A stretch of DNA of 53,031 bases, taken from Thermoplasmata archaeon. GTDB taxonomy: Archaea; Thermoplasmatota; Thermoplasmata; GCA-020350865. A program made the position numbers and the translations under genes. The notes under the pieces were generated by a model. It had not been told where the DNA came from. It did no database searches and saw only the letters and a list, made by a program, of their open reading frames with translations. Positions 12,642-52,036 of this stretch are shown here, piece after piece. Positions within the stretch are counted from its first letter, which is position 1; each line of letters opens with the position of its first letter. The stretch spans positions 4,462,970 to 4,516,000 of the forward strand of contig CP070751.1 in NCBI GenBank assembly GCA_020348445.1, read 5' to 3'.

Positions 12642-12688
12642 AATCGAAAGATTTATCTATATTAAGTAACAATGAATTTTATGATACT
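12642..12688 (+). promoter_or_regulatory. Repeated promoter cassette, copy 5
   Basis: AATCGAAAGATTTATCTATATTAAGTAACAATGAATTTTATGATACT-ATG. Confidence 0.65.
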
Positions 12689-13585: not shown

Positions 13586-13587
13586 TC

Positions 13588-13632
13588 AATCGAAACGTTT
13601 ATCACTTTTAAAAGCAATGAATCTCCGATAAA
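13588..13632 (+). promoter_or_regulatory. Repeated promoter cassette, copy 6
   Basis: AATCGAAACGTTTATCACTTTTAAAAGCAATGAATCTCCGATAAA-ATG. Confidence 0.7.
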
Positions 13633-14571
13633 ATGAGGGGGGCAAGCTCGATTCTATTAATAACCATATTATTATTCCAGTTCACATCGTGTTTACTTTC
13701 TTTTTCCACAATCGCTGGCCCCTTTACCCAGGTAACAATTGATCCCCCGTCCCAGGATGTAGAGGTTGATGTATCTCCTGGCTCAAATGGTGTAGCATCA
13801 GCCCAGATAACTGTTGCCTGTCAGACTATTGATCCTACGCCAGTTATGGTAACACTTTCTGCTGAATCCCCTGGGGCTTTAGTCGGCTTAAGCCCTAATT
13901 CTATGGTATTCCAAACCTTGGGAACTTCGAGTATAGACGTTACAGTCGATATCATCGTCCCAATACAATCCACTTCTTCAGATATGATATGTTCTATAAC
14001 AGGAACCTGGCAGCAGGGTTTATTTTCCGGCGAAGTTGCCCCTGCCACTATAAAGATAATCGTACTGCCCTATTACAGATTTGAATTATCCTGCAAATCA
14101 CCCCTTAATGAGACTTGCCAGGGTGAGGGGGCATGCTTCAATTTATCAATTGAAAACACGGGAAACTGCCGTGATGATTACGAATTAAAAATCACAAACC
14201 AGAAGGAACTGGAGGCAGACAACATCTCGATTCCCAAAACCGATACGATTTCCATCGGCAAAGGGGAAGTCATGAAAATCGAGATGGAGGTAAAAACCTC
14301 ACTCACCACACCCATAAGGAATTATACCCTCCACTTGACTGTAACATCCTTGGGTTCAAAAGCCGAATCAAAAACAGAGGTCTATGAAGTGCTGCCTTTA
14401 TTTCTCACAGTGAAGAAGGGAATGCATAATGAAACTAGAGCCAGTGAAAAGGAGCTGGACCTTCTCTTAAATCCAATTACTCTGATACTCACTGCGTTGA
14501 TTGCTATTCTCAATATCGCATTTATTATCAAAAGGAGGAGGTCGGCAAGAAGGTATTATCCACCAACTTAG
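13633..14571 (+). CDS. Array paralogue 6
   Basis: VDVSPG, GTWQQG, ENTGNCRDDY; TM followed by KRRR. Confidence 0.75.
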   Translation: MRGASSILLITILLFQFTSCLLSFSTIAGPFTQVTIDPPSQDVEVDVSPGSNGVASAQITVACQTIDPTPVMVTLSAESPGALVGLSPNSMVFQTLGTSSIDVTVDIIVPIQSTSSDMICSITGTWQQGLFSGEVAPATIKIIVLPYYRFELSCKSPLNETCQGEGACFNLSIENTGNCRDDYELKITNQKELEADNISIPKTDTISIGKGEVMKIEMEVKTSLTTPIRNYTLHLTVTSLGSKAESKTEVYEVLPLFLTVKKGMHNETRASEKELDLLLNPITLILTALIAILNIAFIIKRRRSARRYYPPT

Positions 14572-14608
14572 CTATCAAATAATTCCTCTTGGCACTTGGA
14601 CGTCTGAT

Positions 14609-15835: not shown

Positions 15836-17525
15836 TGTTTTCTCTCCTGGCAAATTCTGTACCATCGATTATTGTGTATTTATAACCTTGCTCAGTTAAA
15901 AAAAGCTGCCTCTTCTCGGCATAGTCCTGATCCTTTGTGCCCCTCGTGACAATTGAATAGAATCTTGCGATGCTCCCGTCTTTTTTAGGCCTTAAAATCC
16001 TACCCAGCCTCTGGGCCTCCTCCTGTCTGGAACCGAACGTGCCCGAGATCTGTATCGCTACATTGGCATCTGGCAGATCCAATGCAAAATTCGCCACCTT
16101 GGAGAGTATCAACAATTTAATTTCACCGCGTTTAAAGGAATCGTAAAGTCTCTCCCTCTCCCTTCTCGGTGTCTTTCCAGTAATTATATGGGCCTTGAAT
16201 ATATCGGCCACCTTTCTCAGCTGGTCGAGATACATTCCAATTACCAGGATGTTATCATCCGCATGTCGATTCACGATATCTTTGATTATATCGTACTTAA
16301 TCGGATTCTCGGCTGCTATCCTGTACCTCTTTCTTTCATTTACCAGGGAGTAATTCATCTTCACATCTGGCGTCATGTCCACCCTGATCTCCAAGCACTC
16401 CGCAGTTGCTATCCATCCTTGGCTTTCAAGTACCTTCCAGGAGATATCGTACTTCTTTGGACCAATTAAACTGAACACATCCTTCTCCTTGCCATCCTCT
16501 CTTATCAGGGTGGCGGTCAATCCCAATCTGCGTTTTGCCTGGAGGTTCGCAGTGACCTTGAATACAGGTGCAGGTAAAAGATGCACCTCATCGTACACGA
16601 TCAACCCCCAGTTTCTCTTTTGAAACAAAGTAAAATGCGGAAACTCAGAATCCTTCTTAGGCCTCCAAGTTAGGACCTGATAGGTTGTGATGGTAATGGG
16701 TTTTATCTCCTTTTTTTCTCCTGTATATTCCCCGACATCCTCGGTTTTGACGGTGGTTTTGTCCCTGATTTCCTCGATCCACTGCTTTACTCCGATCACA
16801 TTGGGACAGAGGATGAGGGTGTTTTGGGAAAGCAGGCTCATAATGCCAAGACCAACCATGGTCTTTCCTGCACCGCAGGGCAGAACCACGGTCCCGCTGC
16901 CACCAGTGGGGCCAGCATTGGAATAGAAAACTGAAACAGCCTCTCTCTGATATTTTCTGAGACTGAAGGGCATCCCTCCCTTGGTTTTTTCAAGGAGTGT
17001 AATTGGATAATGCTCACCCTCCGCATAACCAGCCAAATCCTCCACTGGGTGCCCGATTTGTATCAGAACATGTTTAATTTCGCCCCTAGATTCGGGCTTC
17101 ACCTCCAAAACAGTCTTTTCCATGCGCTTTGTAAGATGTTTTTTTACCTTCTTGTTCCTCCAAATCTCGGAGATCAATGCGATATCCTGGGACTCGAGGA
17201 ATATCTTTTCTTCTTTTCTTTTCAATTTGAGTTTGCCAAACCTGGAGATATAGTCGTTGACCTCAAATTCGATATTACCGGGTATTGGATACCTCGTATA
17301 CCTTCTCAGAACATCCATCACATCCTCGCCCTTCATGCCTGATGCTGCCGCATTCCACAATGAGATGGGAGAGATTCGAAAGGTATGGATGTATTCGAGG
17401 CTCTTTTCCAGCTCCGCGAATTTGCTGATTTCGTCCCTTGCACTCTCATAAAATGGGCTCTCGACCTCTAAAAGCAATGTCTTGTCGCTTTGGACGATCA
17501 ATGGATTTTGGGATTTTAATGACAT
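15822..17525 (-). CDS. xpb: DNA repair helicase XPB/Rad25 (SF2), bacterial-type
   Basis: N-terminal NPLIVQSDKTLLLEV...ISLWNAAASG, Walker A VLPCGAGKT, DEVH, LGLTATLIREDGKE, GTFGSRQEEAQRLGRILRPK. Confidence 0.92.
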   Translation of the reverse strand: MSLKSQNPLIVQSDKTLLLEVESPFYESARDEISKFAELEKSLEYIHTFRISPISLWNAAASGMKGEDVMDVLRRYTRYPIPGNIEFEVNDYISRFGKLKLKRKEEKIFLESQDIALISEIWRNKKVKKHLTKRMEKTVLEVKPESRGEIKHVLIQIGHPVEDLAGYAEGEHYPITLLEKTKGGMPFSLRKYQREAVSVFYSNAGPTGGSGTVVLPCGAGKTMVGLGIMSLLSQNTLILCPNVIGVKQWIEEIRDKTTVKTEDVGEYTGEKKEIKPITITTYQVLTWRPKKDSEFPHFTLFQKRNWGLIVYDEVHLLPAPVFKVTANLQAKRRLGLTATLIREDGKEKDVFSLIGPKKYDISWKVLESQGWIATAECLEIRVDMTPDVKMNYSLVNERKRYRIAAENPIKYDIIKDIVNRHADDNILVIGMYLDQLRKVADIFKAHIITGKTPRRERERLYDSFKRGEIKLLILSKVANFALDLPDANVAIQISGTFGSRQEEAQRLGRILRPKKDGSIARFYSIVTRGTKDQDYAEKRQLFLTEQGYKYTIIDGTEFARRENSETK

Positions 17526-35828: not shown

Positions 35829-36073
35829 TTTCTGAATAAAACTCCTCTCTTTCCTCTTTTTTATAGTAGGAGATAACCTACACCAATTGTTTAGGGATTG
35901 TGTGCAGGTCTTTTCTCGCATGTCGAGGCTCTATGTATATAGATTGTTGAGTATGAATCCTTAATAATCTAAGGATATTACATAAATTATAAATAGGACA
36001 GGTTTTATAAATAAGATTGTCGGTCTCAAATCGCTTTATTCAAAATAAAAAACTGATTATAGAGGAGGGAATA

Positions 36074-39000
36074 ATGCGTAAAAAGGGTTCATTCGTGCGA
36101 GTAAAATCTTCAATTGATGATTATAAAGAATTATGTAGGAGCATTTTTACTTATATTATTGTAGGTTTATTTATTTGTATGGAATTGTTTATCGGAGCGA
36201 TATATGCCGATGATCCGTTTGAGCCGAATGTAAGAGTTAATGAGCTTGTTATTGTTCCTTCTACTGAAACTCAGAGCAACCCTTCTGTAGGAGTAGATAA
36301 CGCCGGTAACATTTATGTCGCTTGGGGGGATTTTCGGGAAAGCAATTATGATATCTATTTTTCGAAATCTACCGACGGTGGAAACACTTTCTCAGTCAAT
36401 AAAAGGATCAATGATGATAATGGAGAAAGGTGGCAATATAACCCTTCCATAGCAGTCGGTTCCATGGGTAATATCTATATCATTTGGGTGGATGAACGAA
36501 GCGGCAAACCTGAGGTCTATTTTGCGAAATCTACTGACGGTGGAAATACTTTCTCAGTTAATAAGAGGGTCAATGACGGTGCTGGAAATGTAGGGCAAGA
36601 TTCCCTATCTATATCGGTAGATGGTATAGACAATATCTATATAGTATGGATGGATACTCGAAACTTCGATACCAGCCTCTATTTTTCGAAATCCACTGAT
36701 GGTGGGAACACTTTCTCAGCCAATAAGAAAGTCAATGATATTACCGGAAATTCCTGGCGGGAACATCCGTCCATTGCAATCGATAGTACAAGCAATATCT
36801 ATGTTACTTGGATGGATGAACGAAGTGGCAATGCCGACATCTATTTTGCTAAATCCACTGATGGTGGGACCACTTTCTCAAACAATAAGAAGATTAACGA
36901 CGATGCTGGAAATGCAGAGCAATTTACCCCTTCAATAGGAGTAGGAGAGTCTGATAACATTTTTATCGCCTGGGGGGATTTTCGAGATAGTAATTCTGAT
37001 ATCTATTTTACGAGCTCTAACGACGGTGGGAACTCGTTCTCACCAAATAAAAAGGTCAATGATGATGTTAGTAATACAAAGCAATATGAACCTTCTATAG
37101 CAATCGATAACGGGGGCAACATCTATCTTGCTTGGACAGATCAACGAAATGGTAATTACAATATCTATTTTGCGAACTCTACTGATGGTGGGAACTCGTT
37201 CTCACCAAATAAAATGGTCAATGACGATGGTGGTCCTAGCCAATTTCAACCTTCTATAGCAATCGATAACGAGGGCAACATCTATCTTGCTTGGACAGAT
37301 CAACGAAATGGTAATTACGATATATATTTTGCGAGTTCTACCGATGGTGGAAATTCTTTCTCACCAAATAAAATGGTCAATGATGATGTTAGTATTCCTA
37401 GGCAGTATGAACCCTCTATGGCAATCGGTAACAACGGTAACATCTATCTCGCCTGGGCAGATGAACGAAATGGAGACTCCGATATATATTTTGCGAGCTC
37501 TACCGATGGTGGAAACTCGTTTTCACCAAATAAAAAGGTCAGTGACGATACCGTAAATATGATACAACTACACCCATCCATAGCAATCGATGGCGCTGAC
37601 AATATCTATATCGCTTGGTGGGATTATCGACACGGTTTCTTCGGTGATATCTATTTTGCGAAATCCACGGATGGTGGGAACTCTTTCTCAGCAAATAAGA
37701 AAGTCAATGATGATGTTATGAATGCTGCACAGGATAAGCCCTCAATAGCGGTAGATGGTCTTGGCAATATCTATATCGCTTGGGGGGATAATCGTAGTGG
37801 CAATTATGATATATATTTAGCGACCTCTACTGATGGTGGCAACTCTTTCTCAGTAAACAAGAAAGTAAATGATGATGTAATAGGTGCGAAACAAAAATAC
37901 CCATCCATAGTAGCCGATAGCGCGGGCAATATCTATATCACTTGGATGGATGATCGAAGCGGCAATTATGACATCTATTTTGCGAGATCCACTGACGGTG
38001 GAAACACTTTCTCAACAAATAAAAAGGTCAATGACGATTCTGGAGATAACAGACAAACTGATCCCTGCGTAACAGTCGATACCTTGGACAATATATATAT
38101 CGCTTGGAGGGATGGTCGAAACGGCAATTATGACATATATTTTACGAGAACTACCGACGGTGGAAACACTTTCTCAATAAATAAAAAGGTAAACGACGAT
38201 GCTGGAAATAATGACCAACGAGATCCATGTATAGCAGTCGATAGAGTGGGTAATATATATATCGCTTTTAGAGATGATCGGAATGGTGATTATGACATCT
38301 ATTTTGCGAAATCTACTGACGGTGGAAACACTTTCTCCCCTAATAAAAGAGTCAATGACGATATTGGGAGTAATATACAACTTTCTCCATCTATAGGGGT
38401 AGATGACGGAGGCTATATCTATATAGCATGGGAGGATAGGCGAAACGGTAGTGGTGATATTTACCTCACATCAACCGGACCGATACTTGCCCTTTTAATT
38501 ACAGAAATTCAAGACAGTCCGGATGGTAACGAATGGATTGAAGTTTACAATCCTGCTTTGGCAGCTATAAATCTGCAAGATTACAAGATAAGCCTTGATT
38601 ATGGAACAACATTCATTGATGGTTCATGGAGTAACCCTCTGATTAATTTTGGGGAATATAGTATTTGGACGCCAACTGTAGTAGGTTTATTGAATGACGA
38701 AGGTGCCTTGATTTCCATCCACAATTTTACTCACCCAAAAAAATCTATGTTTGATGTTGTTGGATATGGGCAAAATGGCATAGCACCTGATCCTGTAGCT
38801 GGAGAATCGTGTGCTAGATACTGGGACACTATTAACTTAAAATACAAGGATTCTTGGTCAAGAAACGAATCAACAGGTCCATCGCCAGGTGCAGTCAACA
38901 ACAATCCAGAAGTGAATCCAACACCTTTAATAATGTTGAACGAAGTAAGTTTTTATCCTTTTATACCACAGTATGGTTTTATAGAACTGATTTATATCGG

Positions 39001-42000
39001 CGATAACAGTATAGACATAAGCAATTACAAGATTGTGTGCGATAGCGAGTACATAATCCCAGGAGGAACAATATTAAGTAAAAGTGATCCTTTCTTCGGA
39101 GTTAACCAGCTAAATTATCCATCTGGTTTCGATTTAGATGACGGAGTAGTGAACGGTGATAATGTCTATTTATATGACGATACAGGCGCATTGCTTGATA
39201 TGGTGGGTTGGAATTCTTCACATCTTCAGGGTATGAGTGTTCGCAGGATTCCAGATGGGTATGGCACTTATCAAGGTTATAACGACACAACATCAGAAGC
39301 TGCAGGCTGGGTATTTAATATCCCGCTTAAGGTTCAAGTGAGCGAGATATCTGATAATGATTCTATGGTAGCACAAATCGAGGTCTATAATCCAAGGTAT
39401 CCTTTCATCAACTTCAATGTTGGTTTCAGTTTTGAATCTGCTTCCTCTGGAACATTAGCAGGTGTATGGTCAATCTCTACTGCAAATGAAGATGGATACG
39501 CTCTTTTCAATGTGACTACTCCCAATGGTTTAAACACTGAAGGAGATAACATCCGCTTTTACCTGTATGATGTGCTTATCGAGGAAATCTCTTATGGTCA
39601 GAAAGGTGTGGTTCCTGATCCTCTAACTGGAGAATCCACAGCCCGCTATTGGAACACCACTCTCTTAGAATATACTAGCTATTGGAATAGAGAAAAAACT
39701 CCAACCTTCGGAGCACAAAACGATGTTCTACCTCCAAACTTAAATCCATCAGTTGTATTAAACGAGATAATGTTCAATCCAAGTTCACCCGAAGACGGGT
39801 TTGTGGAAATCTATCTAAAATTTGGCTGGGTTGATATCACTGGTTATAAGATCGTTGGTGACTCTGAATACATCTTTCCCCAGGTGACGGAATTACCCTC
39901 GGATGATCACTTATATTATATTACACAACCCATGGATCCAGGTTTCTTCGCCGCCTTGAATCCATCAGGTGACAACGTGTATCTATACGACGATTATGGG
40001 TCACTCCTTGACATGGCCGGGTGGAGTTCATCCCATCAGCAGGGAAAGACGATGTGTCGCATTCCCGAGGGAAATGGCACATTTGACGGATTCAATGATA
40101 CATCATCCATTGCGGCGGGTTGGATCTTTGGCTGCAGTCCTACGATAAGGTTGATTGATATAACTGCCAATGAGATCGTTAAAATTGGTAATTTAAGCGA
40201 TGTGTTGTATTTCAACCTTACAATAACTAATATGCATTTTCTCAATGATACTTTCCCCATATTCAACTTCACTATCAATGGATATTCTGTTGCAATCCTC
40301 GATAACACATTAACGTATATTATTGATGAGATTTTTTTACTCGCCAGATCTTCCGTTGACATTAAGGTCAAGGTCAAACCTATCCTTCAGACGCCCGTTG
40401 TCGGATGGGATAACATCACCATAACGATTCAATCCGAGAATAACTCCCTTTATTGGAGTATTATAATTCTTCAGGTATTTGTTATATGCCCCCCTGTTGC
40501 TGATGCGGGCCAAGATCAAATCGTTTATGAAAGTGCAATAGTGTATTTCGATGGAACAGAGAGCTACGATCCAGACTACCATTGGCACAAGTTGGATGTC
40601 AACTTTGCCACCGATAGTGCTTTGTATCTGCGTACAATCGACCCCATCGGCCCAGAGGATGGTGCATGGGAAGGTGGAGTTCAGGAATGGGTGAATTTCA
40701 CTTCACCATTCCCCTTCTGGATCGGTAAGAAGTCTGGCCATTTGGGCCAGGGACCAACAGGTCATGAATACACCTACTACTGGAAGATGCACGAGACAGG
40801 GAATTTTACACTATACTTTAGTGGGCGTAACGGCGATTTCTATGCCAATGTGTCTGATGAGACTGACGGTATCCCTGTCATATCAGGGCTCTTTGTCCAA
40901 AACTCCGATCCTTTTATTGAGATCGTACGACAACTTTACGATGGGCACATCTATCGTTTGGACATCTATGATACAGTCAGCAAATCCGTTAGCTTTCCCA
41001 AGGATCTGGACGTTATCTTCAAAATTAAAGAGACTGAAATACTACTAACCCCAAATCGGGACAGCCTGGTCTACTATATCTCTCAAAATCCATTGGACAT
41101 GGCAGTTGAAGGACCTGGGGTGAGGGATATCCAATTCTATTCCCGAAGCATACAGGAGTTCTACGCATACTACGCCTTAAAACTGGATCACTCTGAAGTG
41201 GAGTTTAGTGGAGGAGAGCTGGGATCAACAGATCCTCCATATAATACAGGAATAGCACCTAGCGAGTATAAAGCTACGACCCTGAACATCTCGGATGAAC
41301 TGATTTATCTCTGGGATTTCGATGCAGATTTCGATTCTGATGGCGATGGAAACTTGACAAATGACATTGATGCCACCGGGTTAACACCAATTCATATTTA
41401 CGGTGATAACTGGTTATATACAGTTACATTGACAGTAATAGATGTTCAAGGCCTATCAGATATCGATATATGCTATATTACAGTGAACAACGCTGCACCT
41501 ACAATTGAGCCCTTCGGGCCTTTCACAGTTTACAGAGGGGATCCTCTAACAATCGACGCAAATGCCACTGACCTTGGTAGCGATGATCTGACGTTCACAT
41601 GGGAATTTGAGTCCGGGCCAACAATTATGAACTTATACTACAACGACGGTGTCGGCCTTGACCCATATCCAAGTCCTTGGGGAATCTTTCCATTCTCCAG
41701 AACCGATACAGTGCAACACACATATGACGCAATAGGTATTTACACGATAAACCTCACGGTAGAGGATGATGATGGGGGAATATCATATTATACGACCACC
41801 ATCGTGGTGATTAACATCCCGATACTTCCCCCCATCCTATTTATAAACGTTAGCCAGGATGGGAAGGACGTGATTCTTTACTGGGACCCGCCCTCTATCC
41901 CGGACCTTGATCATTATTTGATATACCGTTCGACGTCACAAATCTCCTTCGATTTCAATAAAGTATGGGTGGATACTTCAATAGATAACGAAACTGGCGA

Positions 42001-43012
42001 GCCAGGCCCCATACCTCTTAGGACTATGTGGAACGATACATACGCCGCATTCTTGGGAGATGAGACAAACTACGAGGAGGAATATTATTACATAATAAGA
42101 GCCGTGAATTCCTTTGGTGAAGTGAGCGCAACCAGCAGAACGGTTGGGAAATGGACAAAATCGTTCCCAAAGGGAGTGTCGACCTTTTCCCTACCTTTGG
42201 AACCAATCGAACCTTTTTACACTGACTATTACACCTCGACTATGAATACCCAATACATCAAGTACATGGACTCTAATACACACCGCTGGCGACAACATAA
42301 TTTTGGAGATCAGAACACAAACAATACTGAAATGAAATTGGGTGAAGGTTATGAGGTAAAATTCGATAGCCAGACTATCTACACCTTCACAGGTTTGCCT
42401 GCTGCCATGATAAGTTACAATGACGATAATGGATTTACTGGATTTAATTACATTTCGGAGGCAAAAAGCCTTATGGTTGAAGTTTTACCAAATGGAGATG
42501 TAAATCTGACATGGCAGGAACCAGCAAGTATGGGAATTGGCGATTGGTATGAAATATATTATTCAAACACGACAGATGGTTTTTTCGGAACTTTTAATAA
42601 GGATTATTTTCTCCTTTGTGCCCCTATTTATTTTAGAAATTTTAGCGCAACTCACATAAATGCTCGGGCCAACGATCCTGGTGCACGGTCATACTATTTG
42701 GTTGTTCCGTTCAGTGCCAGTGGTATTAGAGGTGCGAGCACCTACAGCATTGGAATTTGGACAGAGGAATATACCTCAGGATATGACACGCTTGCCATAC
42801 CACTGAAACTTAAAGATAACTATACTGCAGATTGGTACTGTGATAATATACCCAACACCGAGGGAATCAATTATTTCGATATTAGCAAACAGCGGTGGTA
42901 CTGGCACTCAACCATAATGCCTGTTGGAGCATTTGATACAAATTTGGTTATGACCCAAGGGTACCAAATTTCAACTTCGGACACCACAAAATTCACATTT
43001 ATTGGGGTATAA
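36074..43012 (+). CDS. Secreted gene F: 14-blade Asp-box (BNR) propeller region, (LTD-a/LTD-b) x2, split PKD, second PKD-like domain and type II C-terminal domain
   Basis: 13 x STDGGN(T/S)FS; lamin-tail-like ITEI/LNEV...EVYNP; PVADAGQDQ...YDPD / YLWDFD...YTVTLTV; ends GYQISTSDTTKFTFIGV. Start ATG 36074 after GAGGAGGGG. Confidence 0.85.
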   Translation: MRKKGSFVRVKSSIDDYKELCRSIFTYIIVGLFICMELFIGAIYADDPFEPNVRVNELVIVPSTETQSNPSVGVDNAGNIYVAWGDFRESNYDIYFSKSTDGGNTFSVNKRINDDNGERWQYNPSIAVGSMGNIYIIWVDERSGKPEVYFAKSTDGGNTFSVNKRVNDGAGNVGQDSLSISVDGIDNIYIVWMDTRNFDTSLYFSKSTDGGNTFSANKKVNDITGNSWREHPSIAIDSTSNIYVTWMDERSGNADIYFAKSTDGGTTFSNNKKINDDAGNAEQFTPSIGVGESDNIFIAWGDFRDSNSDIYFTSSNDGGNSFSPNKKVNDDVSNTKQYEPSIAIDNGGNIYLAWTDQRNGNYNIYFANSTDGGNSFSPNKMVNDDGGPSQFQPSIAIDNEGNIYLAWTDQRNGNYDIYFASSTDGGNSFSPNKMVNDDVSIPRQYEPSMAIGNNGNIYLAWADERNGDSDIYFASSTDGGNSFSPNKKVSDDTVNMIQLHPSIAIDGADNIYIAWWDYRHGFFGDIYFAKSTDGGNSFSANKKVNDDVMNAAQDKPSIAVDGLGNIYIAWGDNRSGNYDIYLATSTDGGNSFSVNKKVNDDVIGAKQKYPSIVADSAGNIYITWMDDRSGNYDIYFARSTDGGNTFSTNKKVNDDSGDNRQTDPCVTVDTLDNIYIAWRDGRNGNYDIYFTRTTDGGNTFSINKKVNDDAGNNDQRDPCIAVDRVGNIYIAFRDDRNGDYDIYFAKSTDGGNTFSPNKRVNDDIGSNIQLSPSIGVDDGGYIYIAWEDRRNGSGDIYLTSTGPILALLITEIQDSPDGNEWIEVYNPALAAINLQDYKISLDYGTTFIDGSWSNPLINFGEYSIWTPTVVGLLNDEGALISIHNFTHPKKSMFDVVGYGQNGIAPDPVAGESCARYWDTINLKYKDSWSRNESTGPSPGAVNNNPEVNPTPLIMLNEVSFYPFIPQYGFIELIYIGDNSIDISNYKIVCDSEYIIPGGTILSKSDPFFGVNQLNYPSGFDLDDGVVNGDNVYLYDDTGALLDMVGWNSSHLQGMSVRRIPDGYGTYQGYNDTTSEAAGWVFNIPLKVQVSEISDNDSMVAQIEVYNPRYPFINFNVGFSFESASSGTLAGVWSISTANEDGYALFNVTTPNGLNTEGDNIRFYLYDVLIEEISYGQKGVVPDPLTGESTARYWNTTLLEYTSYWNREKTPTFGAQNDVLPPNLNPSVVLNEIMFNPSSPEDGFVEIYLKFGWVDITGYKIVGDSEYIFPQVTELPSDDHLYYITQPMDPGFFAALNPSGDNVYLYDDYGSLLDMAGWSSSHQQGKTMCRIPEGNGTFDGFNDTSSIAAGWIFGCSPTIRLIDITANEIVKIGNLSDVLYFNLTITNMHFLNDTFPIFNFTINGYSVAILDNTLTYIIDEIFLLARSSVDIKVKVKPILQTPVVGWDNITITIQSENNSLYWSIIILQVFVICPPVADAGQDQIVYESAIVYFDGTESYDPDYHWHKLDVNFATDSALYLRTIDPIGPEDGAWEGGVQEWVNFTSPFPFWIGKKSGHLGQGPTGHEYTYYWKMHETGNFTLYFSGRNGDFYANVSDETDGIPVISGLFVQNSDPFIEIVRQLYDGHIYRLDIYDTVSKSVSFPKDLDVIFKIKETEILLTPNRDSLVYYISQNPLDMAVEGPGVRDIQFYSRSIQEFYAYYALKLDHSEVEFSGGELGSTDPPYNTGIAPSEYKATTLNISDELIYLWDFDADFDSDGDGNLTNDIDATGLTPIHIYGDNWLYTVTLTVIDVQGLSDIDICYITVNNAAPTIEPFGPFTVYRGDPLTIDANATDLGSDDLTFTWEFESGPTIMNLYYNDGVGLDPYPSPWGIFPFSRTDTVQHTYDAIGIYTINLTVEDDDGGISYYTTTIVVINIPILPPILFINVSQDGKDVILYWDPPSIPDLDHYLIYRSTSQISFDFNKVWVDTSIDNETGEPGPIPLRTMWNDTYAAFLGDETNYEEEYYYIIRAVNSFGEVSATSRTVGKWTKSFPKGVSTFSLPLEPIEPFYTDYYTSTMNTQYIKYMDSNTHRWRQHNFGDQNTNNTEMKLGEGYEVKFDSQTIYTFTGLPAAMISYNDDNGFTGFNYISEAKSLMVEVLPNGDVNLTWQEPASMGIGDWYEIYYSNTTDGFFGTFNKDYFLLCAPIYFRNFSATHINARANDPGARSYYLVVPFSASGIRGASTYSIGIWTEEYTSGYDTLAIPLKLKDNYTADWYCDNIPNTEGINYFDISKQRWYWHSTIMPVGAFDTNLVMTQGYQISTSDTTKFTFIGV
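36280..38470 (+). repeat. Intragenic tandem repeats of ~162 bp (54 aa): 13 Asp-boxes, 14 blades
   Basis: GA(C/T)GGTGG cores near 36371, 36534, 36696, 36856, 37019, 37180, 37340, 37501, 37666, 37828, 37991, 38152 and 38314. Confidence 0.88.
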
Positions 43013-43064: not shown

Positions 43065-43634
43065 TCACCCCACAACTACCAAAACATCATCGGCATCAAC
43101 TGAATCCCCTTCTTTAACCCTTACCTCGGAGATCTTTCCGTCTCTATTGGATGTTATCTCGTTTTCCATCTTCATTGCCTCTAAAATCACAACCACATCC
43201 CCAGGCTTGACATCATCGCCCAGGTTCACCTTGACTGCCACGACCTTGCCGGGCATAGGGGCCAGGATTCCGTCGGCAGCAGCGGCTGTTTTCGGAGGCA
43301 GTTCCCTTTCTTCAACCAAAGTTGTAACGTCTGTACCAGCGGTTTCCGGTTTTATGGATGATACCATTCCCCTTGAACTGAGAAGATTTTCACTTACTAT
43401 TTCCCGTTCCCTGAGGTTGACTTTCGTGTGGATTTTCCCCCCTGCAGGCTCGCCCTCTAGTTCAATCGAATATAGCCCGCCGTCAACTGCCAAAAGCAGA
43501 AAATTGTCTGATTCGTCCTCTAATGTGGCCTCATATTTTTTACCATTTACTGCGACGTGGAACTTTCTGCTCTCAAGCTTTGTTATTTGGATATCATATT
43601 CCTTATCTATTATGTTCAGCTTAAATGCTCTCAT
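43065..43634 (-). CDS. Biotin carboxyl carrier protein (1.3S/MmdC-like) with an N-terminal beta-rich domain
   Basis: APMPGKVV...LEAMKMENEI biotinylation motif. ATGA overlap with the upstream gene. Confidence 0.92.
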   Translation of the reverse strand: MRAFKLNIIDKEYDIQITKLESRKFHVAVNGKKYEATLEDESDNFLLLAVDGGLYSIELEGEPAGGKIHTKVNLREREIVSENLLSSRGMVSSIKPETAGTDVTTLVEERELPPKTAAAADGILAPMPGKVVAVKVNLGDDVKPGDVVVILEAMKMENEITSNRDGKISEVRVKEGDSVDADDVLVVVG

Positions 43635-45130
43635 GGATTTCTGCCTCTTGCATTCATCAATTCTATTCTGCCTGCCATGCCCCAAGGGCTAATCTCGTTT
43701 CTGCGTTCCATCACACGCGGTTGGGTCACAGTCTCGATTCTCAGGAATTTCGAGGCCAAAGCAACTGAAATCGCTGCCACCTCTGCATCATCTATTACCT
43801 TACCCTCCCTTTCCAAAAAGTATCTTTTAGCAACCTGGGGAAACAAGGCATATGATAGAACATCCTCGATGTTTTCGGTTCCAAGCTCTTTTTTCAATTT
43901 CTCAAGTTCAGGCTCCAGCAGGTCCGCAGGACGCGAGGTAATTGGGACCTCATCCCCAATTGCCATTATCTTTACCTGTTCGGCAATGGGCGCTGCGCTT
44001 TTTCCGTACAAACCCCTCACCAGGTTCTTTGTCTCCTTTGGAATCATTTTGTAGCGGCCAGAAAGAAGAACATTCAGAGTTGCCTGGGTCCCCACTATCT
44101 GACTCGAGGGAGTGACCAGAGGTGGATAGCCGAGTTCTGCCCTGACCTTTGGAACCTCCTTTAGAACCTCGGGGAGTCTGTCCTCTGCATTCTGGTCCCT
44201 AAGCTGCTTTACCAAATTGGACATCATTCCCCCTGGGATTTGAAACTGAAGTACGTCTGTATCCACGCCAGTTGCAGAGCTCTCGTAGATCCTGTATTTT
44301 TTTCTTACCTTTGTAAAGTGATCTGCAATTTCCCCGAGGACAGTCAAATCCAAATCTGTATCATAAGGTGTACCTTTCAGCATGGCCACAAAGGTCTCTG
44401 TGGGGGGCTGTGATGTGCCCCTTGAAAGACTGGATATGGCACAGTCGATGATGTCTGCTCCTGCCTCTATTCCCTTGAGATAGGCTGCAGTTGCCATCCC
44501 ACTAGTATCATGGCAGTGAAGATGAATTGGTAATGATATATTTTCCTTTAATTTGGTGACGAGCTCGAATGCAGAAGAGGGTGAAAGCAGCCCAGCCATG
44601 TCCTTTATGCACAGGGTGTCTGATCCCATTGCCTCCAGTTCCTTGGCCATGTTCACGAAGACATCTGTTGTGTGAACTGGGCTTATAGTGTAGCAAACAC
44701 AGCATTCAGCCAGGGCTCCAACCTTCTTGGTGGTATCCAAAGCTGTTTTCATGTTCCTTGGATCATTTAAGGCGTCAAATATCCGAAACACATCTATTCC
44801 ATTCTTATGGGCCTGCTCAACGAACTTCTTTACCACATCATCTGGGTAATGCCTGTATCCAACTATGTTCTGCCCCCGAAGAAGCATCTGGAGCCTTGTA
44901 TTGGGCATGGCCTTTTTAAGGAGCCTGATTCTTTCCCAGGGGTCCTGCTTTAAAAATCTCAAGCATGAATCAAACGTGGCACCCCCCCACATCTCAACTG
45001 ACCAGTAACCGACTTGGTTCACTTTTTCAGCTATTGCTAGCATGTCCTCTGTACGCATCCTTGTTGCCAAAAGGGATTGATGTGCATCCCGAAATGCAGT
45101 GTCAGTGATTTTAATTTGTCTCTTATCCAA
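43631..45130 (-). CDS. Pyruvate/oxaloacetate carboxyltransferase (5S / OadA / PycB-type TIM barrel) with no biotinyl domain and an epsilon-like C-terminal tail
   Basis: FRDAHQSLLATRM, EMWGGATFD, QMLLRGQN, IKDMAG, HCHDTSG, QIPGGM, PPLVTPSSQIVG. TTG start after GGGGGAG. Confidence 0.92.
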   Translation of the reverse strand: MDKRQIKITDTAFRDAHQSLLATRMRTEDMLAIAEKVNQVGYWSVEMWGGATFDSCLRFLKQDPWERIRLLKKAMPNTRLQMLLRGQNIVGYRHYPDDVVKKFVEQAHKNGIDVFRIFDALNDPRNMKTALDTTKKVGALAECCVCYTISPVHTTDVFVNMAKELEAMGSDTLCIKDMAGLLSPSSAFELVTKLKENISLPIHLHCHDTSGMATAAYLKGIEAGADIIDCAISSLSRGTSQPPTETFVAMLKGTPYDTDLDLTVLGEIADHFTKVRKKYRIYESSATGVDTDVLQFQIPGGMMSNLVKQLRDQNAEDRLPEVLKEVPKVRAELGYPPLVTPSSQIVGTQATLNVLLSGRYKMIPKETKNLVRGLYGKSAAPIAEQVKIMAIGDEVPITSRPADLLEPELEKLKKELGTENIEDVLSYALFPQVAKRYFLEREGKVIDDAEVAAISVALASKFLRIETVTQPRVMERRNEISPWGMAGRIELMNARGRNP

Positions 45131-45150
45131 TTTCTCTCCCCCGAAAGGAT

Positions 45151-46701
45151 CTAAAGTGGTATGTTGCCGTGCTTCTTTGAAGGACGCGGCTCTCTCTTAT
45201 TTAACAGGGTGTGAAGTGCGTTGATGACCTTTGGTCTGGTTTCCTGGGGTTCGATTACATCATCCACATAACCCTTTTCTGCTGCAATGTATGGATTGGC
45301 GAATTTTTTTCTGTATTCTGAGACGAGCTCCTGCCTTTTCTTTTTCGGATCCTCTGCCTTTTCAATTTCCTTTCTAAAGATTATGTTTACAGCACCGTCC
45401 GGTCCCATGACAGCGATTTCGGACGTTGGCCATGCAAAGTTTATGTCGGCTCTTATATGCTTGGAGCACATGACATCGTAGGCCCCTCCGTAGGCCTTTC
45501 TTGTGATCACGGTGATTTTAGGTACAGTGGCCTCGCAGTACGCATAAAGCAGTTTAGAGCCGTTTGTGATGATGCCGCCGTATTCCTGCGTCGTGCCAGG
45601 TAAAAATCCTGGGACGTCAACAAAGGTAAGGAGGGGAATATTGAATGCATCGCAGAAGCGAACGAACCTTCCTCCCTTTCTCGAGGAATTGATATCCAGG
45701 GTGCCTGCAAGGTGTTTGGGCTGGTTGCCCACAACACCAATCGAGTGTCCATCCAGTCTTCCAAAACCGACAACAATGTTCTGTGCCCAGAAAGGGTGAA
45801 CCTCCATGAACTCTCCATTGTCCACAACTCTGAGGATCACGTCTTTGATGTCATAGGGTTTGTTGGGATCGTCTGGAACTATGTTGACAAGCTCAGGATC
45901 CATTCTATTGGGATCGTCTCCGGTATCCACATAGGGTGGATTTTCCAGGTTGTTTTGCGGCATGTAGCTCAGCAGTTTCTTGGTCATCCTAATGCAGTCC
46001 ATCTCATCCTCGCAGGCAAAGTGTGCCACACCTGATTTTGTGTTGTGCGTCATGGCACCTCCCAGCTCCTCGAAAGTAACCTCCTCTTTTGTCACTGTCT
46101 TTATGACCTCCGGGCCTGTGATGAACATATGGCTTGTGCCCTTTACCATGAGTATGAAATCAGTCATTGCAGGGGAATACACAGCTCCTCCTGCACAGGG
46201 TCCCATTACAGCTGAGATCTGGGGAATCACTCCCGAGGCCATGACGTTTCTAAAGAATATCTCGGCATATCCACCTAGACTAACCACTCCTTCCTGGATT
46301 CTTGCACCGCCCGAGTCATTCAAACCTATTACCGGGGCCCCGTTTCGCATTGCCAAATCCATTATCTTGACCACCTTTTCTGCGAATTTCCATCCCAGGG
46401 AACCCCCAAATACAGTGAAATCCTGGGAGAATATGTAGACCAGGCGCCCGTCGATTTTTCCGTATCCTGTGATAACACCGTCTCCGAGAATTCGCTTCTT
46501 CTCCATTCCAAAATCAGTGCATTCGTGAAGTGCAAAGGCATCGAGCTCAACAAAGCTTCCATCATCCAGGAGTTTTTCTATTCTCTCCCTTGCCGTGTAC
46601 TTTCCCTGTTTGTGCTGCTTTTCGATGCGCGGAATTCCGCCACCAAGCTTGGCTTTCTCTTTCTTTTCCCTAAGCTCCTTTACTTTCTCTTCGACGGTCA
46701 T
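45151..46701 (-). CDS. Acyl-CoA carboxyltransferase (12S / MmdA / PccB family; methylmalonyl-CoA/propionyl-CoA)
   Basis: [61 protein letters not shown]. Probable start MTVEEK (ATG 46701) after GGAGG. Confidence 0.93.
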
Positions 46702-47023: not shown

Positions 47024-50000
47024 ATGAGGAAGAGATTATTTACTATAATGGTTTTTGTAATGGGTCTCTTAGTTGCAGCAGTTATGTTCAATCCATCCAC
47101 TGAGAATGCGGTGGCAGAAACTGAGGTTACGAAGTTGATGGAGCTAAAGACACTGGAAAATCACAGTGCGAGTGTAAACTCTGTTGCATGGTCACCTGAC
47201 GGCATTATGCTCGCATCGGGATCATCTGATAACACATTGAAAGTTTGGGACATTACAACAGGCTTCGAGGTCCTAAATTTGACTGGCCACACAGATTTCG
47301 TATGGTCTGTATCCTGGTCGCCTGACGGCAAGAAGCTTGCCTCGGGATCTTCGGACAACACAATCAAACTCTGGGATTATGCAAGTGCCTCCAACGAGAA
47401 AAACCTAACCGGCCATACCGACGCTGTAAGATCTGTTTCATGGTCCCCAAATGGTACACAACTTGCCTCTGGTTCAAATGACACACATCTTATAATATGG
47501 GACTATGCATCTGGCATCCTTGAAAAGGACCTGGTTGATGAGCCATATAATATATCTTCTGTTGATTGGTCACCTTATGGCAACAAAATAGCAGCTGGCG
47601 ATGAAAACGGGACCATCAAGATCTGGGACTATGCCACCGGCAACAATGAGAAAAACCTGACCAATGGCTCAAGCTCGCCTATTTACGCCGTCGTCTGGTC
47701 CCCCAATGGAACCCAACTAGCCTCGGGCCATGAGGATGGTACGATAAACATATGGGATTATGCAAGCGGTAAAAACATAACGACCCTTTCCGGACATGTT
47801 GGTGGAATCACTTCTATTTCCTGGTCTTTTGACGGCAAATTCCTGGTATCTGGCTCTGAAGATTCTGATATAAGAATTTGGAATGTCACAAATGGAAGCT
47901 GTGCAAAGACCTTAAGCGGTCATGCAGATTCTGTGGAGTCGGTAGCTTGGTCTCCTTTGGGTGATAAAATCGCTTCGGGATCCAAGGATAACACAATAAA
48001 AATTTGGGGAGTTGGTCCGGATTTGATTCTTACTACACCATACATATGGTTTACATACCCACCATGGGGTCCAACTGAAAACGATACTGTTGTGATTCAT
48101 GCATTGATTCGCAATATTGGAGGAGAAGATGCATTTCCCGATCCTGAGTTAGAGGTCCAATTTTGGGTGGGATATATTACTGGGCCAGATTATCTGGTGG
48201 GCTATGGGAACATATCAGGAGTTGCTGCAGGAGGTTCTGCCGAATCCAATTGCACATGGACTACAACAACTCCCCCTGATCTCTATACAATATGGATAGT
48301 GATAGACCCTAATAATCTTGTGAAAGAAATTGACGAGGACAACTGGGCGAACGCAACCATCAACATCAAAAAGTACGCCGATATCGCGCCTATAGGAATT
48401 AATTTCTGGGTGGAGGGAATTCCAGTAACCTCGGTAACTGATGGCGCCCAGGTTACAATAATAGCCAGCGTGGATAACATTGGAGAGACAAATGCCTCGA
48501 ATGTTGTTGTGCAGTTCTATGATGGGGATCCTAATGCAGGGGGAGTTCAAATTGGAACAGATCAAATAATATCAAATATCGAAGTTTCACACGTAGAAGA
48601 TGTCAATGTTTCATGGATTGCCACTGTAGAAGTTGGACAAAAGCTGGAGATTCATGACATCTATGTGGTTGTAAGCGGTGTTGTAGAGAATTACTATGAT
48701 AATAATGTTTATAATAGTGCCCTTACGGTCATGCTCAGACCTGATATCAGTGTGGTAGATATTACCTTCAGCGATGATACTCCTTTTGAAGGGGACGATA
48801 TTCAAATATATGCATATATCCTAAACTCTGGTGGTACTGATACCACACAATTTGAAATCGGATTCTGGGATGGTGATCCAGATTCTAGCGGTACTCTAAT
48901 TGGATATAATTCCACCAGCCTTACAGTAGACGAAATAGGATTCGTGAACGTGACATGGCCCTCTTTAACAAGGGGCCCTCATGAGATATTCATAGTCGTT
49001 GATGCTTTGGATGATATTAACGAGGCAGATGAGACCAATAATGAAGCATCTAAGAACATTATCGTCTATTCTCCAAGGGACATACATGTTCGCGACATCA
49101 ACACTCCATACAAAATAGATACTGCGGGCGGAGACCTTGATCACATGGGTTACACGCTTGTGGAAGAGCATGGCGAGCTCATTGTGGTTAACACAATCTT
49201 CAAGGTACTTGAAACAACAGATTATGAATACAATATTGTGGTTCGGGACAATGGTACATTTATATTGAAAGATAATTCACAACTGCTCACCAACGGCTCA
49301 AAATTGAAGATATATCTTTACGATGGAGCAACACTCCAGATTATCGATTCTGTTATAGATTCTACAATTATAGAAATCCAGGCTCACGATAATGCAAATA
49401 TCATTATAACGAACAGTACGATTGGAAGTCACATAAATGTCTCAACTCCAAATACCAATATCCGTCTTTATGCCACGAACTCGTCCCTTAATAGCCCCTT
49501 TACATCCTTTGGTGGGACCTCAGAGGCTATTTTTACTAATGTTTACACTCCAGATGTGCAACTTCTTGAAGGGGCAGAGCTTGAGGTTTATCAATGGCTA
49601 AAAGTTTTTGTGAAAGACGGAAATGGTGGTTTGGTAGAGGGTTGCACAGTTAATGTCACCGAATTTTTTAGCAGCATTGAGATACCTGGGTCTCCCAAAC
49701 AAAGCAATTCTAATGGAATGGTTTTGTTTAACGTCCTGACAGACATCATAACTTCTTCAGGTACAACCAGTTTCCTCAACTTCAAGATCAGCGGTCTATA
49801 TTCCCACGGGGGGGAAAACTATACAGGCTCAAAGATAGTCTCCTTCGTAAGTTATCTTGTTGATAAGATAGACAACATAGAAGAAATTGATTTGTATATT
49901 TCGGATCTTAAACCAGACTTTTACGTTGATGCCACGAGCATTTCCTTTTGGAAAGATGGAACCTGGAGAATCACGGTTGGAGTAGGCGAGGAAATTAACA

Positions 50001-52036
50001 TAACCGCAACTGTTCAAAATGTTGGCATCAGGGATTCTAAGGGGGTAATTGTGAGATTTTTTATTGATTTGGATAGTGACGGTATAAGGGATCCAGATGA
50101 ACTCATTGATGAGGGTACAACATCCGCAATAGCAGCCGATGGTGGAACTGGTGATGCCTTTGTAATTTGGACACCCCAGGAACATGAAGTAGGAGATGAT
50201 ATGTGGGTATGGATAGTCGTGGATCCATACAATAACATTCAGGAAATAAACGAGGGTGATGACAACAAAGCTTTTAGAGTAGTGGATATAGTAATTCCAC
50301 CTGATATATCCATAACAAGCTCGGACATTTCCTTTTGGATCGGTAATGAGCAATTAACTGATAATGCAACTGAAATGTCGATTATAACCATAAGGGCTAC
50401 GGTATACAATTTAGGTACCGATAATCCTGCGAACAATATCGATATCTATGCCTTCGATGGATTTCCTGATCTTGACGGTGATGGTAAACCTGACAGTCCG
50501 CTACCCTCGAATGTGAAGTTGATTGATTATCAGTCACTGGCATTTCTGGCACCAGGGTCCTTTGCCACTGTTAATCTTACATGGGATACAACAGAGGAAG
50601 TAGGTGAGCATGACATCTACATTTATGCAATAGATGCTACGATAATTAATGGTTATATCATCCCAGATCAAAATTTAACTAACAATAACGTATCAAAAAT
50701 GTTTATGGTGTTCCCAAAACCCGACCTGATGTCAACTTTTATACCGCCTTACCCACAAATTATTGTACTACTTGATGAAGATGGAGCAATATTGTCTAAT
50801 AATCCAAGAGTAGGTCAAATAATAATATTTAAAACTGCAGTCTATAACGATGGTTTGGCTTATATCAGCGCTGTTAATGTAAGTCTTTATGACGGTGATC
50901 CTGAAAATGGTGGAACGCAGATAGGAAGCAACATAACAGTACAATTATCCCCTCGACAATATGTGAATGTAAGTTGGGAATGGATTGTTACAGAGCCCAT
51001 TGGAACAAAGGATATCTATGTGTGGGTAAATCCTTATCTTGTCGTTTTGGAATCTGATTATACAAATAACAAAGTACATAGAACCATAAATGTTGTCAAG
51101 TCCAACGTTGCCATAACCTTGAATGACTTTGATGATGACCACCTTGAATATGGAAGTACCAAAACCGTTTCAGGTACCGTGAGATTCACTGATACTGGAT
51201 CTGGAATCGGCGATATGGAGGCTAAAATAAAAATATTAGATAAAAACAGCCAGCAATATGGGGATACCCTAACTGCAATATCGACATCAGAAGGTCTCTT
51301 TTCCTTGGACATAACTGCCCCGAATTTAGAAGGTTATTATTCCATTGAAGCCCGCGTGAACGAGGATGGGGTAATCCCAGAGGAGGATTATACCGATAAT
51401 GTGGCGTCATTAATGATCTATGTTGACGACGGTGATGGTTACATTGGCCAGGATGACGCCTTTTTTGATGACCTAAATCAATGGAACGATGCAGACGGGG
51501 ACGGTTATGGAGACAACCCAGGATATGAAAATTCAGATGCCTTCCCTAATGATCTTAATGAATGGGAAGATTCAGATGATGATGGCTATGGTGACAATGG
51601 CGATGCCTTCCCAAATGATCCCAATGAATGGCTGGACAGCGATAAGGACGGGCATGGCGATAACAGTGATGTCTTTCCGAATGACCCTGATGAATGGTCT
51701 GATTCAGATGGCGATGGTATTGGTGACAACTCAGATTTCCTTCCCGATTTGCATAACAATGTATTGTATATGATGATTGCAGTAATCATAATCGTGATAG
51801 TAATCTTGGTCTTCCTCCTGAGGAGAAGGAAAAAAGAGATCGAGGGAATCCCGGAGGTTGAAGGAGGTCTTGGGGAAGGAGAAATAAAGGAGGAAATCGA
51901 AGGGTCAGAACATGAGGATGAGGAACAGACAGAAGTTACTGGACAAGAACCTGAGGAAGAAGTAGAATCCCAAAAGGAAGAGATTGAAACTATTGAAGAG
52001 GGATCTACTTTTGATGAAGAAGAAAATATTGATTAA
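47024..52036 (+). CDS. Exported membrane-anchored protein: 7 WD40 repeats, multiple CARDB domains, TSP type-3-like Ca-binding repeats, TM and acidic cytoplasmic tail
   Basis: Signal peptide; 7 x (GH...VxSVxWSPDG...LASGSxDxTIKxWD); N-x-G...E-x-N-xx-NN CARDB motifs; DAFPNDPNEW.DSD.DG.GDN repeats; TM followed by RRRKK. GGGTGA RBS. Confidence 0.88.
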   Translation: MRKRLFTIMVFVMGLLVAAVMFNPSTENAVAETEVTKLMELKTLENHSASVNSVAWSPDGIMLASGSSDNTLKVWDITTGFEVLNLTGHTDFVWSVSWSPDGKKLASGSSDNTIKLWDYASASNEKNLTGHTDAVRSVSWSPNGTQLASGSNDTHLIIWDYASGILEKDLVDEPYNISSVDWSPYGNKIAAGDENGTIKIWDYATGNNEKNLTNGSSSPIYAVVWSPNGTQLASGHEDGTINIWDYASGKNITTLSGHVGGITSISWSFDGKFLVSGSEDSDIRIWNVTNGSCAKTLSGHADSVESVAWSPLGDKIASGSKDNTIKIWGVGPDLILTTPYIWFTYPPWGPTENDTVVIHALIRNIGGEDAFPDPELEVQFWVGYITGPDYLVGYGNISGVAAGGSAESNCTWTTTTPPDLYTIWIVIDPNNLVKEIDEDNWANATINIKKYADIAPIGINFWVEGIPVTSVTDGAQVTIIASVDNIGETNASNVVVQFYDGDPNAGGVQIGTDQIISNIEVSHVEDVNVSWIATVEVGQKLEIHDIYVVVSGVVENYYDNNVYNSALTVMLRPDISVVDITFSDDTPFEGDDIQIYAYILNSGGTDTTQFEIGFWDGDPDSSGTLIGYNSTSLTVDEIGFVNVTWPSLTRGPHEIFIVVDALDDINEADETNNEASKNIIVYSPRDIHVRDINTPYKIDTAGGDLDHMGYTLVEEHGELIVVNTIFKVLETTDYEYNIVVRDNGTFILKDNSQLLTNGSKLKIYLYDGATLQIIDSVIDSTIIEIQAHDNANIIITNSTIGSHINVSTPNTNIRLYATNSSLNSPFTSFGGTSEAIFTNVYTPDVQLLEGAELEVYQWLKVFVKDGNGGLVEGCTVNVTEFFSSIEIPGSPKQSNSNGMVLFNVLTDIITSSGTTSFLNFKISGLYSHGGENYTGSKIVSFVSYLVDKIDNIEEIDLYISDLKPDFYVDATSISFWKDGTWRITVGVGEEINITATVQNVGIRDSKGVIVRFFIDLDSDGIRDPDELIDEGTTSAIAADGGTGDAFVIWTPQEHEVGDDMWVWIVVDPYNNIQEINEGDDNKAFRVVDIVIPPDISITSSDISFWIGNEQLTDNATEMSIITIRATVYNLGTDNPANNIDIYAFDGFPDLDGDGKPDSPLPSNVKLIDYQSLAFLAPGSFATVNLTWDTTEEVGEHDIYIYAIDATIINGYIIPDQNLTNNNVSKMFMVFPKPDLMSTFIPPYPQIIVLLDEDGAILSNNPRVGQIIIFKTAVYNDGLAYISAVNVSLYDGDPENGGTQIGSNITVQLSPRQYVNVSWEWIVTEPIGTKDIYVWVNPYLVVLESDYTNNKVHRTINVVKSNVAITLNDFDDDHLEYGSTKTVSGTVRFTDTGSGIGDMEAKIKILDKNSQQYGDTLTAISTSEGLFSLDITAPNLEGYYSIEARVNEDGVIPEEDYTDNVASLMIYVDDGDGYIGQDDAFFDDLNQWNDADGDGYGDNPGYENSDAFPNDLNEWEDSDDDGYGDNGDAFPNDPNEWLDSDKDGHGDNSDVFPNDPDEWSDSDGDGIGDNSDFLPDLHNNVLYMMIAVIIIVIVILVFLLRRRKKEIEGIPEVEGGLGEGEIKEEIEGSEHEDEEQTEVTGQEPEEEVESQKEEIETIEEGSTFDEEENID
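51421..51750 (+). repeat. About five thrombospondin type-3-like Asp-rich repeats
   Basis: DAFFDDLNQWNDADGDGYGDN, DAFPNDLNEWEDSDDDGYGDN, DAFPNDPNEWLDSDKDGHGDN, DVFPNDPDEWSDSDGDGIGDN. Confidence 0.8.

Follow-up and report, generated by a model that had tools for sequence, protein, structure and literature searches.

A predicted transcarboxylase-type operon with propionyl-CoA carboxylase-like assembly elements in a Thermoplasmata archaeon

The operon and its three subunits

A three-gene operon for biotin-dependent carboxyl transfer is present on the minus strand of contig CP070751.1 from a Thermoplasmata archaeon, at positions 43065-46701 of a 53,031-nucleotide stretch of DNA that was analysed as a whole and is called the window here (G000:C1:4462970-4516000, within a single-contig genome of 5.16 Mb). 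The three co-directional genes encode, in this order, an acyl-CoA carboxyltransferase (CT12S), a pyruvate/oxaloacetate carboxyltransferase (5S), and one biotin carboxyl carrier protein (BCCP), the carrier (Table 1). The stop codon of the CT12S gene is followed by 20 nt, including a GGGGGAG box, and then by the TTG start of the 5S gene, and the stop codon of the latter (TGA) is joined to the start codon of the carrier gene (ATG) in an ATGA overlap; translational coupling is a feature of this operon. The flanking genes, two plus-strand giants for surface proteins, are unrelated to it, and neither a biotin carboxylase (BC) gene nor an OAD_beta gene was found in the window. The original prediction, made from the letters of the window, had described just such an operon with a stand-alone carrier, unrelated flanks, and no BC or pump beta subunit nearby, and was confirmed in all these points.

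CT12S gives a full-length match to PF01039 (Carboxyl_trans, E 1e-206). Its best solved relatives are the beta subunits of propionyl-CoA carboxylase (PCC) (1vrg, 3n6r_B, 1x0u, and 6ybp_A, about 700 bits), to which it is nearer than to the 12S subunit of P. freudenreichii subsp. shermanii (P. shermanii; 1on3, 621 bits), and its score against the mmdA model TIGR01117 is 880 bits, below the cut-off of 999 bits. The protein has the features of both a 12S-type and a PccB-type carboxyltransferase. In its motif GGAYDVM, the Asp aligns with D407 of the M. extorquens PCC beta subunit (numbering counted from the alignment), a position that we take, from the literature on the PCCs of S. coelicolor and M. 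extorquens, to be the PccB specificity residue favouring propionyl-CoA. An alternative upstream ATG at 46728 would extend CT12S to 525 aa.

In the 5S subunit, no biotinyl domain (PF00364) was found. The protein scores 759 bits against the PycB domain model NF006761 and reaches none of the NCBIfam equivalogs for OadA, PycB, and 5S; its solved relatives are PycB (5ks8_C, 546 bits), OadA (2nx9, 520 bits), and the P. shermanii 5S (1rqb, 503 bits). The motifs FRDAHQS (residue 13), KDMAG (176), and HLHCH (203) are all present and are invariant across 36 relatives, and with them the metal and carbamyl-lysine motifs of a 5S-type subunit.

The carrier contains a Biotin_lipoyl domain (PF00364) at residues 123-187, preceded by a weak N-terminal match to PF21385 (ACCA_BT). 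The biotinyl domain matches 2d5d, the BCCP of P. horikoshii, as well as 1dcz, the 1.3S subunit, and its EAMKMENE motif is invariant in 35 carrier orthologues. The N-terminal part was predicted to be a BT-type beta-barrel, in place of the short linker of 1.3S. By phmmer, residues 23-185 align with residues 499-663 of the M. extorquens PCC alpha subunit (6ybp_G), which comprise the BT and BCCP part, and a Foldseek search with the carrier model gave, over about 190 columns, the BT and BCCP parts of PCC alpha as the top matches (8xl3_A, E 4.8e-12; 3n6r; 6ybp), followed by MCC alpha. Based on the structural model, the carrier corresponds to the BT barrel of PCC alpha together with its BCCP part, and it is thus a BT-type carrier as found in PCC.

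Table 1. Features of the operon, of the window around it, and of two further loci of the genome. Positions are those of the window unless G000:C1 is given.
Feature	Position	Strand	Remarks
pckG, GTP-dependent phosphoenolpyruvate carboxykinase (PEPCK)	6725-8614	-	PEPCK_N + PEPCK_GTP
BNR/PKD/LTD giant, one flank	36017-43012	+	2331 aa; about 20 BNR-like repeats + LTD + PKD domains
Biotin carboxyl carrier protein	43065..43634	-	189 aa; ATG overlaps 5S stop
Biotinyl domain of carrier, residues 121-189	43068..43274	-	EAMKMENE; Lys155 = biotin attachment site
BT-like beta-barrel of carrier, residues 1-85	43380..43634	-	AlphaFold: eight strands at 2-82, pLDDT about 90
5S, 5S/PycB/OadA-type pyruvate/oxaloacetate carboxyltransferase	43631..45130	-	499 aa, TTG start; PF00682 (HMGL-like) + PF02436 (PYC_OADA)
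C-terminal tail of 5S, residues 452-499	43634..43777	-	probable docking peptide; amphipathic helix (AAISVALA), spacer, SPWGMAGR
CT12S, 12S/PccB/MmdA-type acyl-CoA carboxyltransferase	45151..46701	-	516 aa from ATG at 46701
WD40/CARDB giant, other flank	47024-52036	+	1670 aa; WD40 propellers + CARDB domains
Orphan biotin carboxylase	G000:C1 ~2,226,907-2,228,295		462 aa; between DUF131, methyltransferase, and glycosyltransferase genes
Second biotin locus	G000:C1:3940813-3944007 (L011:7814-11008)	-	BCCP2 (72 aa), enoyl-CoA hydratase, CT2 (513 aa), DUF2284

The C-terminal tail of 5S and comparison with known enzymes

The PCC-type operons of Thermoplasmata have the order CT12S-BC-BCCP, in which BC occupies the position held here by 5S. 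The BCs of these operons are 500-550 aa long and end in a tail that consists of an Ala-rich amphipathic helix, a spacer, and Trp-x-x-x-Gly-Arg; the C-terminal ends of PycA-type BCs are unlike this tail. A hidden Markov model (HMM) was built from eight such C-terminal tails, which were chosen by operon context alone, and was searched against the 55,710 six-frame open reading frames of the genome. The 5S frame was the sole significant match (E 1.5e-6; next 0.38). A weak second match at 4,127,007-4,127,285, in sequence that looks non-coding, was taken as chance. As judged from the sequences, the BC tails of the Thermoplasmata PCC operons are homologous to the tail of 5S.

The tail was found in 49 of the 52 complete 5S genes of the CT12S-5S-BCCP operon type, and its Trp483 is invariant in 36 relatives. 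In the AlphaFold model of isolated 5S, residues 1-441 have high pLDDT; the tail forms helices at 448-462 and 482-494, with pLDDT <50 in between, and a stretch of low confidence in such a model is expected of a peptide that folds on its partner. Weak matches to the Pfam family ACC_epsilon, present in seven of 39 related tails and absent from that of the window, agree with a carboxyltransferase-binding role of the tail, short of proof. Searches of the PDB sequences with the tail alone and with a 39-sequence tail profile gave no meaningful match, including to P. shermanii 5S and PCC alpha, so that the assignment of the tail to the BT domain's "helix and hook" is tentative. From the tail homology, the PCC-type carrier, and the operon position taken together, we infer that the tail anchors 5S on the CT12S-carrier scaffold, as BC is anchored in PCC.

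Among the known systems, the transcarboxylase of P. shermanii (EC 2.1.3.1) also combines an acyl-CoA carboxyltransferase, a pyruvate carboxyltransferase free of a biotin domain, and a separate carrier with the AMKM motif, with no BC or pump gene in the operon. The original prediction had assigned the gene set to this type, which the domain content supports. The likeness to the propionibacterial 12S-5S-1.3S enzyme holds for the subunit set, but not for the parts of the assembly. The 1.3S subunit has 123 aa and a short linker, whereas the carrier described here has a PCC-type BT beta-barrel and is 189 aa long, and the BC-type or epsilon-like tail of 5S has no detectable counterpart in P. shermanii 5S (1rqb). 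In addition, this genome, unlike the P. shermanii system, contains an orphan BC and was found to be without fumarate reductase.

The Thermoplasmata PCC operons resemble the present operon more closely. Their carboxyltransferases are orthologous to CT12S (62-79% identity), and the full-length BT-barrel carrier, the docking tail, and the operon order are common to both; the PCCs compared include the alpha6beta6 enzymes with a BT domain (3N6R, 6YBP, 7YBU). In contrast to PCC, the ATP-grasp BC core is replaced here by a pyruvate carboxyltransferase core, and the operon therefore encodes no ATP-dependent step; a BC joined to the complex via a BT element, as in PCC, was not found, as the operon is BC-free and the sole BC of the genome is tail-less. 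With the two-subunit PycA/PycB enzymes of methanogens and Methylobacillus flagellatus (5KS8), the operon shares the core of 5S, which is most similar to PycB, and the genome a PycA-like orphan BC. However, PycB and its carrier form one fused protein, which is encoded next to pycA, while the operon has a separate PCC-type carrier, an acyl-CoA carboxyltransferase as neighbour, and a shorter, unlinked BC, so that neither the fused BCCP nor the joint encoding with PycA is found here.

Imachi et al. (2020; PMC7015854) proposed transcarboxylase-type gene sets in Asgard archaea, with the same inferred enzyme and the same role in propionate/methylmalonyl-CoA metabolism; the host in the present case is a member of Thermoplasmata. 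The original prediction was aware of no characterised transcarboxylase from archaea, which is correct, but the reading itself had already been published for Asgard archaea. In the literature, no paper was found on a transcarboxylase of Thermoplasmata or Methanomassiliicoccales or on a transcarboxylase design with a BT domain. New are the Thermoplasmata host, the positional swap of BC and 5S within one class, the statistical tail homology, and the complication of an orphan BC.

Gene inventory of the genome and distribution of the operon

The genome contains two Carboxyl_trans genes (that of CT12S and a second one at about 3.94 Mb), one PYC_OADA gene (that of 5S), and two Biotin_lipoyl genes (that of the carrier and that of BCCP2 at the second biotin locus). 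The second locus is without BC, and its divergent CT2 is as far from PCC beta as from MCC beta; in other families, the relatives of this locus have the order ECH-BC-BCCP-CT, with enoyl-CoA hydratase (ECH) first.

For the methylmalonyl-CoA route, the presence of mutase and epimerase had been proposed as a check, and these genes were found: three for the large subunit of the mutase, one for a small subunit that binds B12, two for MeaB, and one each for an adenosyltransferase and an epimerase, the latter directly behind one mutase (TIGR03081, 152 bits against a cut-off of 115 bits), together with SucC and one BirA gene. No Succ_DH_flav_C match was obtained genome-wide, and hence no flavoprotein of Sdh, Frd, or Tfr was found. 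Since neither a fumarate reductase nor a succinate dehydrogenase flavoprotein was found, the full Wood-Werkman cycle, to which the original prediction had traced this subunit set in propionibacteria, is unsupported. The pckG gene was correctly placed in the same window, but it lies about 35 kb from the operon, unlinked and not co-transcribed with it. As a separate observation, positions 1169-3876 of the window (plus strand) carry an FAD-linked oxidase (FAD_binding_4 + FAD-oxidase_C) followed by a CCG/4Fe-4S protein, a pair that resembles glycolate or D-lactate dehydrogenase.

The distribution of the relevant genes was surveyed in a sample of 151 Thermoplasmata genomes, in which PYC_OADA was present in 55, BC in 50, OadB in 21, and the mutase in 91. 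In one family (f11), a 5S-type gene was found in 14 of 15 genomes, BC in 1/15, OadB in 0/15, and the mutase in 15/15; the unpublished genome G097 is counted here, and leaving it out gives 13/14, 1/14, 0/14, and 14/14, respectively. All seven loci of this family that were inspected have the order CT12S-5S-BCCP, and the sole BC-bearing genome has CT12S-BC-BCCP and no 5S gene. Apparent CT12S-5S fusions in two genomes of the family (open frames of 1036-1051 aa) were rejected as high-G+C artefacts, the matches being in different frames.

The closest public record with the operon is the closed chromosome of Methanomassiliicoccales archaeon bin396 (CP070739.1; G029), which belongs to the same genus; the next-closest records are metagenome-assembled genomes (MAGs) of uncultured Thermoplasmata archaea. 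In this sister genome, the operon is kept at 84-92% identity and the BCCP2-ECH-CT2 locus at 85-93%, and no BC was detected either by Pfam search or by search with the orphan BC protein. BC is thus dispensable for retention of the operon. The content of biotin enzymes varies strongly within the genus, whose genomes measure between 2.3 and 5.2 Mb; a MAG of the same genus (G049:C39; L037:42-1771, 12343-16761) carries two extra sets of a tailed BC and BCCP, of which one belongs to an ECH-BC-BCCP-CT operon.

For the 5S protein, the loci of its 80 nearest public relatives were also compared, and BC was sought in the fetched flanks. At 55 loci, the order is CT12S, 5S with tail, and stand-alone BCCP, none of them with BC in the fetched flanks (0/55); they span Thermoplasmata, Bathyarchaeia, Chloroflexota, Planctomycetota, Myxococcota, and others. 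Another 19, from Nitrospirota and deltaproteobacteria, encode BC and a fused PycB without tail, and six are of unclear type. At the genome level, BC is wholly absent from 16 of 50 operon-bearing genomes, and some BC is present in the other 34. The BCs of genomes labelled Methanomassiliicoccales (L146-L157, e.g., OW818644.1) share the C-terminus HPPADLLKQxEFSxFE, and these genomes contain no biotin carrier besides that of the operon.

Proposed function and alternative explanations

Taken together, these data make it fairly likely that the operon encodes a transcarboxylase-type complex on a PCC scaffold, which serves the propionyl-CoA/succinyl-CoA route. In this complex, one swinging biotin carrier would serve two carboxyltransferases: the hexamer-forming PccB/12S-type subunit would act on (S)-methylmalonyl-CoA/propionyl-CoA, the 5S/PycB-type subunit on oxaloacetate/pyruvate, and the two would jointly catalyse a reversible, ATP-free transcarboxylation of the EC 2.1.3.1 type. 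Both carboxyltransferase half-reactions of EC 2.1.3.1 are reversible; with one shared carrier, transcarboxylation would therefore be intrinsic if both subunits reach it. The carrier would have kept the PCC-type BT barrel, and 5S would have taken over the BC-type docking tail and the place of BC in the operon. To judge from the gene sequences, the archaeon probably needs no ATP to transfer CO2 between methylmalonyl-CoA and pyruvate.

The enzyme would tie propionyl-CoA/succinyl-CoA metabolism (mutases, epimerase, and SucCD) to the pyruvate/oxaloacetate/PEP node (GTP-PEPCK). Plausible roles are the oxaloacetate-driven, ATP-free carboxylation of propionyl-CoA derived from amino acids, after which the mutase and SucCD would yield succinate and ATP, or the reverse, in which pyruvate would be converted to oxaloacetate while succinate is converted to propionate; in addition, PEPCK could couple oxaloacetate to PEP.

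Several findings weigh against this assignment. The 5S subunit misses the NCBIfam 5S equivalog NF008984 (601 bits against a cut-off of 827 bits). Of the subunit trees that had been suggested as a check, the tree of 5S cores fails to separate 5S from genuine PycB; it cannot tell the two functions apart and was discarded as a discriminator between transcarboxylase-type and PycB-type proteins. The genome contains one full-length, intact BC, unlinked and 2.28 Mb from the operon. A quick maximum-likelihood tree places it as sister to the PycA of Thermoplasmata (SH-aLRT 98), PycA being the BC partner of pyruvate carboxyltransferase, and the only pyruvate carboxyltransferase available to it is the 5S subunit of the operon. 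Furthermore, genomes of the Methanomassiliicoccaceae type each contain, besides the same operon, a single orphan BC that is tail-less and belongs to another lineage. In one of them, OW818644.1, which is closed, E2 and GcvH account for the other two Biotin_lipoyl matches, the operon carrier is thus the only biotin carrier, and the orphan BC there must load it. Unlinked BCs can therefore feed the CT12S-5S-BCCP module in relatives, and the Methanomassiliicoccales-labelled genomes point to a four-part enzyme with unlinked genes. A BC elsewhere in the genome had been named by the original prediction itself as a finding that would refute it; taken literally, such a BC exists, and the issue shifts to whether this BC serves the operon.

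If it does, the operon products would belong to one or more ATP-dependent carboxylases with unlinked parts, in which the orphan PycA-type BC loads the carrier, 5S forms oxaloacetate (a split PycA/PycB), CT12S forms methylmalonyl-CoA (PCC), or both, and a three-headed enzyme would carry out transcarboxylation only on the side. The fact that pycA and pycB need not be linked in archaea suits this explanation, as do the intactness and PycA affinity of the orphan BC and the occurrence of some BC in most operon-bearing genomes. The orphan BC passes NF006406 (779 bits against 739 bits), and its identity is 60-62% to the Thermoplasmata PycAs that adjoin a fused PycB, compared with 46-56% to the BCs of acyl-CoA carboxylase operons. 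However, it ends right after the catalytic core (462 aa, against 481-489 aa for PycA), without the docking tail, which is a feature of operon-encoded BCs and is borne here by 5S. Its gene neighbourhood is not conserved within the genus, BCCP2 of the second locus could be its alternative client in this genome (with the BCCP2-ECH-CT2 locus as a whole), and oxaloacetate can already be supplied by GTP-PEPCK. The ATP-independent link between propionyl-CoA and pyruvate that had been predicted is favoured by retention of the operon without BC in the closed sister genome and in family f11, but is weakened by the presence of the orphan BC here. On balance, ATP-dependent carboxylation as the main function is possible but rather unlikely.

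Two further explanations retain the complex or its subunits and change the reaction. The same two-headed complex might use other substrates, for example acetyl-CoA/malonyl-CoA on the CoA side or, in a CfiA-like manner, 2-oxoglutarate on the keto-acid side; the choice between PccB- and AccB-type or PycB- and CfiA-type specificity is not fixed by sequence alone, and the scores lie under the equivalog cut-offs. Nevertheless, the Asp of CT12S at the propionyl-CoA specificity position of PccB, the nearest relatives of CT12S, which belong to PCC operons, and the consistent co-occurrence of the operon with methylmalonyl-CoA mutase and epimerase make such substrates improbable. That the subunits make up the soluble portion of a Na+-translocating decarboxylase for methylmalonyl-CoA or oxaloacetate is suggested by their resemblance to MmdA, OadA, and MmdC and by the OadB genes that adjoin OadA-type genes in other Thermoplasmata families. 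As the original prediction had expected, no match to OAD_beta (PF03977, OadB/MmdB) was found in the 5.16-Mb single-contig genome, nor in the genus or in family f11, and the pump was ruled out on the lack of this gene in the genome, which leaves it with a very small probability.

Between transcarboxylase and carboxylase, an intermediate solution can tentatively be proposed, to which we give a rather low probability: a three-way carboxyl hub, in which a BT-type carrier on a CT12S core would be visited by the tail-anchored 5S and, where present, by a free, tail-less BC, and which would transcarboxylate without ATP at one time and use ATP to carboxylate pyruvate or propionyl-CoA at another. If true, this biochemically undescribed hub would have a wide distribution that covers Thermoplasmata, the Methanomassiliicoccales methanogens among them, as well as several bacterial phyla.

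If the operon encodes a transcarboxylase-type complex as favoured here, ATP-free shuttling of carboxyl groups between the propionyl-CoA and pyruvate nodes would be common in energy-limited sediment archaea beyond the Asgard group, among them relatives of the methanogens that live in guts and wetlands. The enzyme appears to have been born of a pyruvate carboxyltransferase core that was swapped onto a PCC docking tail, which, if true, would be a clear case of modular evolution in biotin enzymes. The combination of tail and BT barrel may serve as an assembly rule that separates transcarboxylase-type from PycB-type genes, which are now named inconsistently by annotation pipelines. The role of the orphan BC would decide whether such genomes fix CO2 at the pyruvate/propionyl-CoA node or merely shuffle it.

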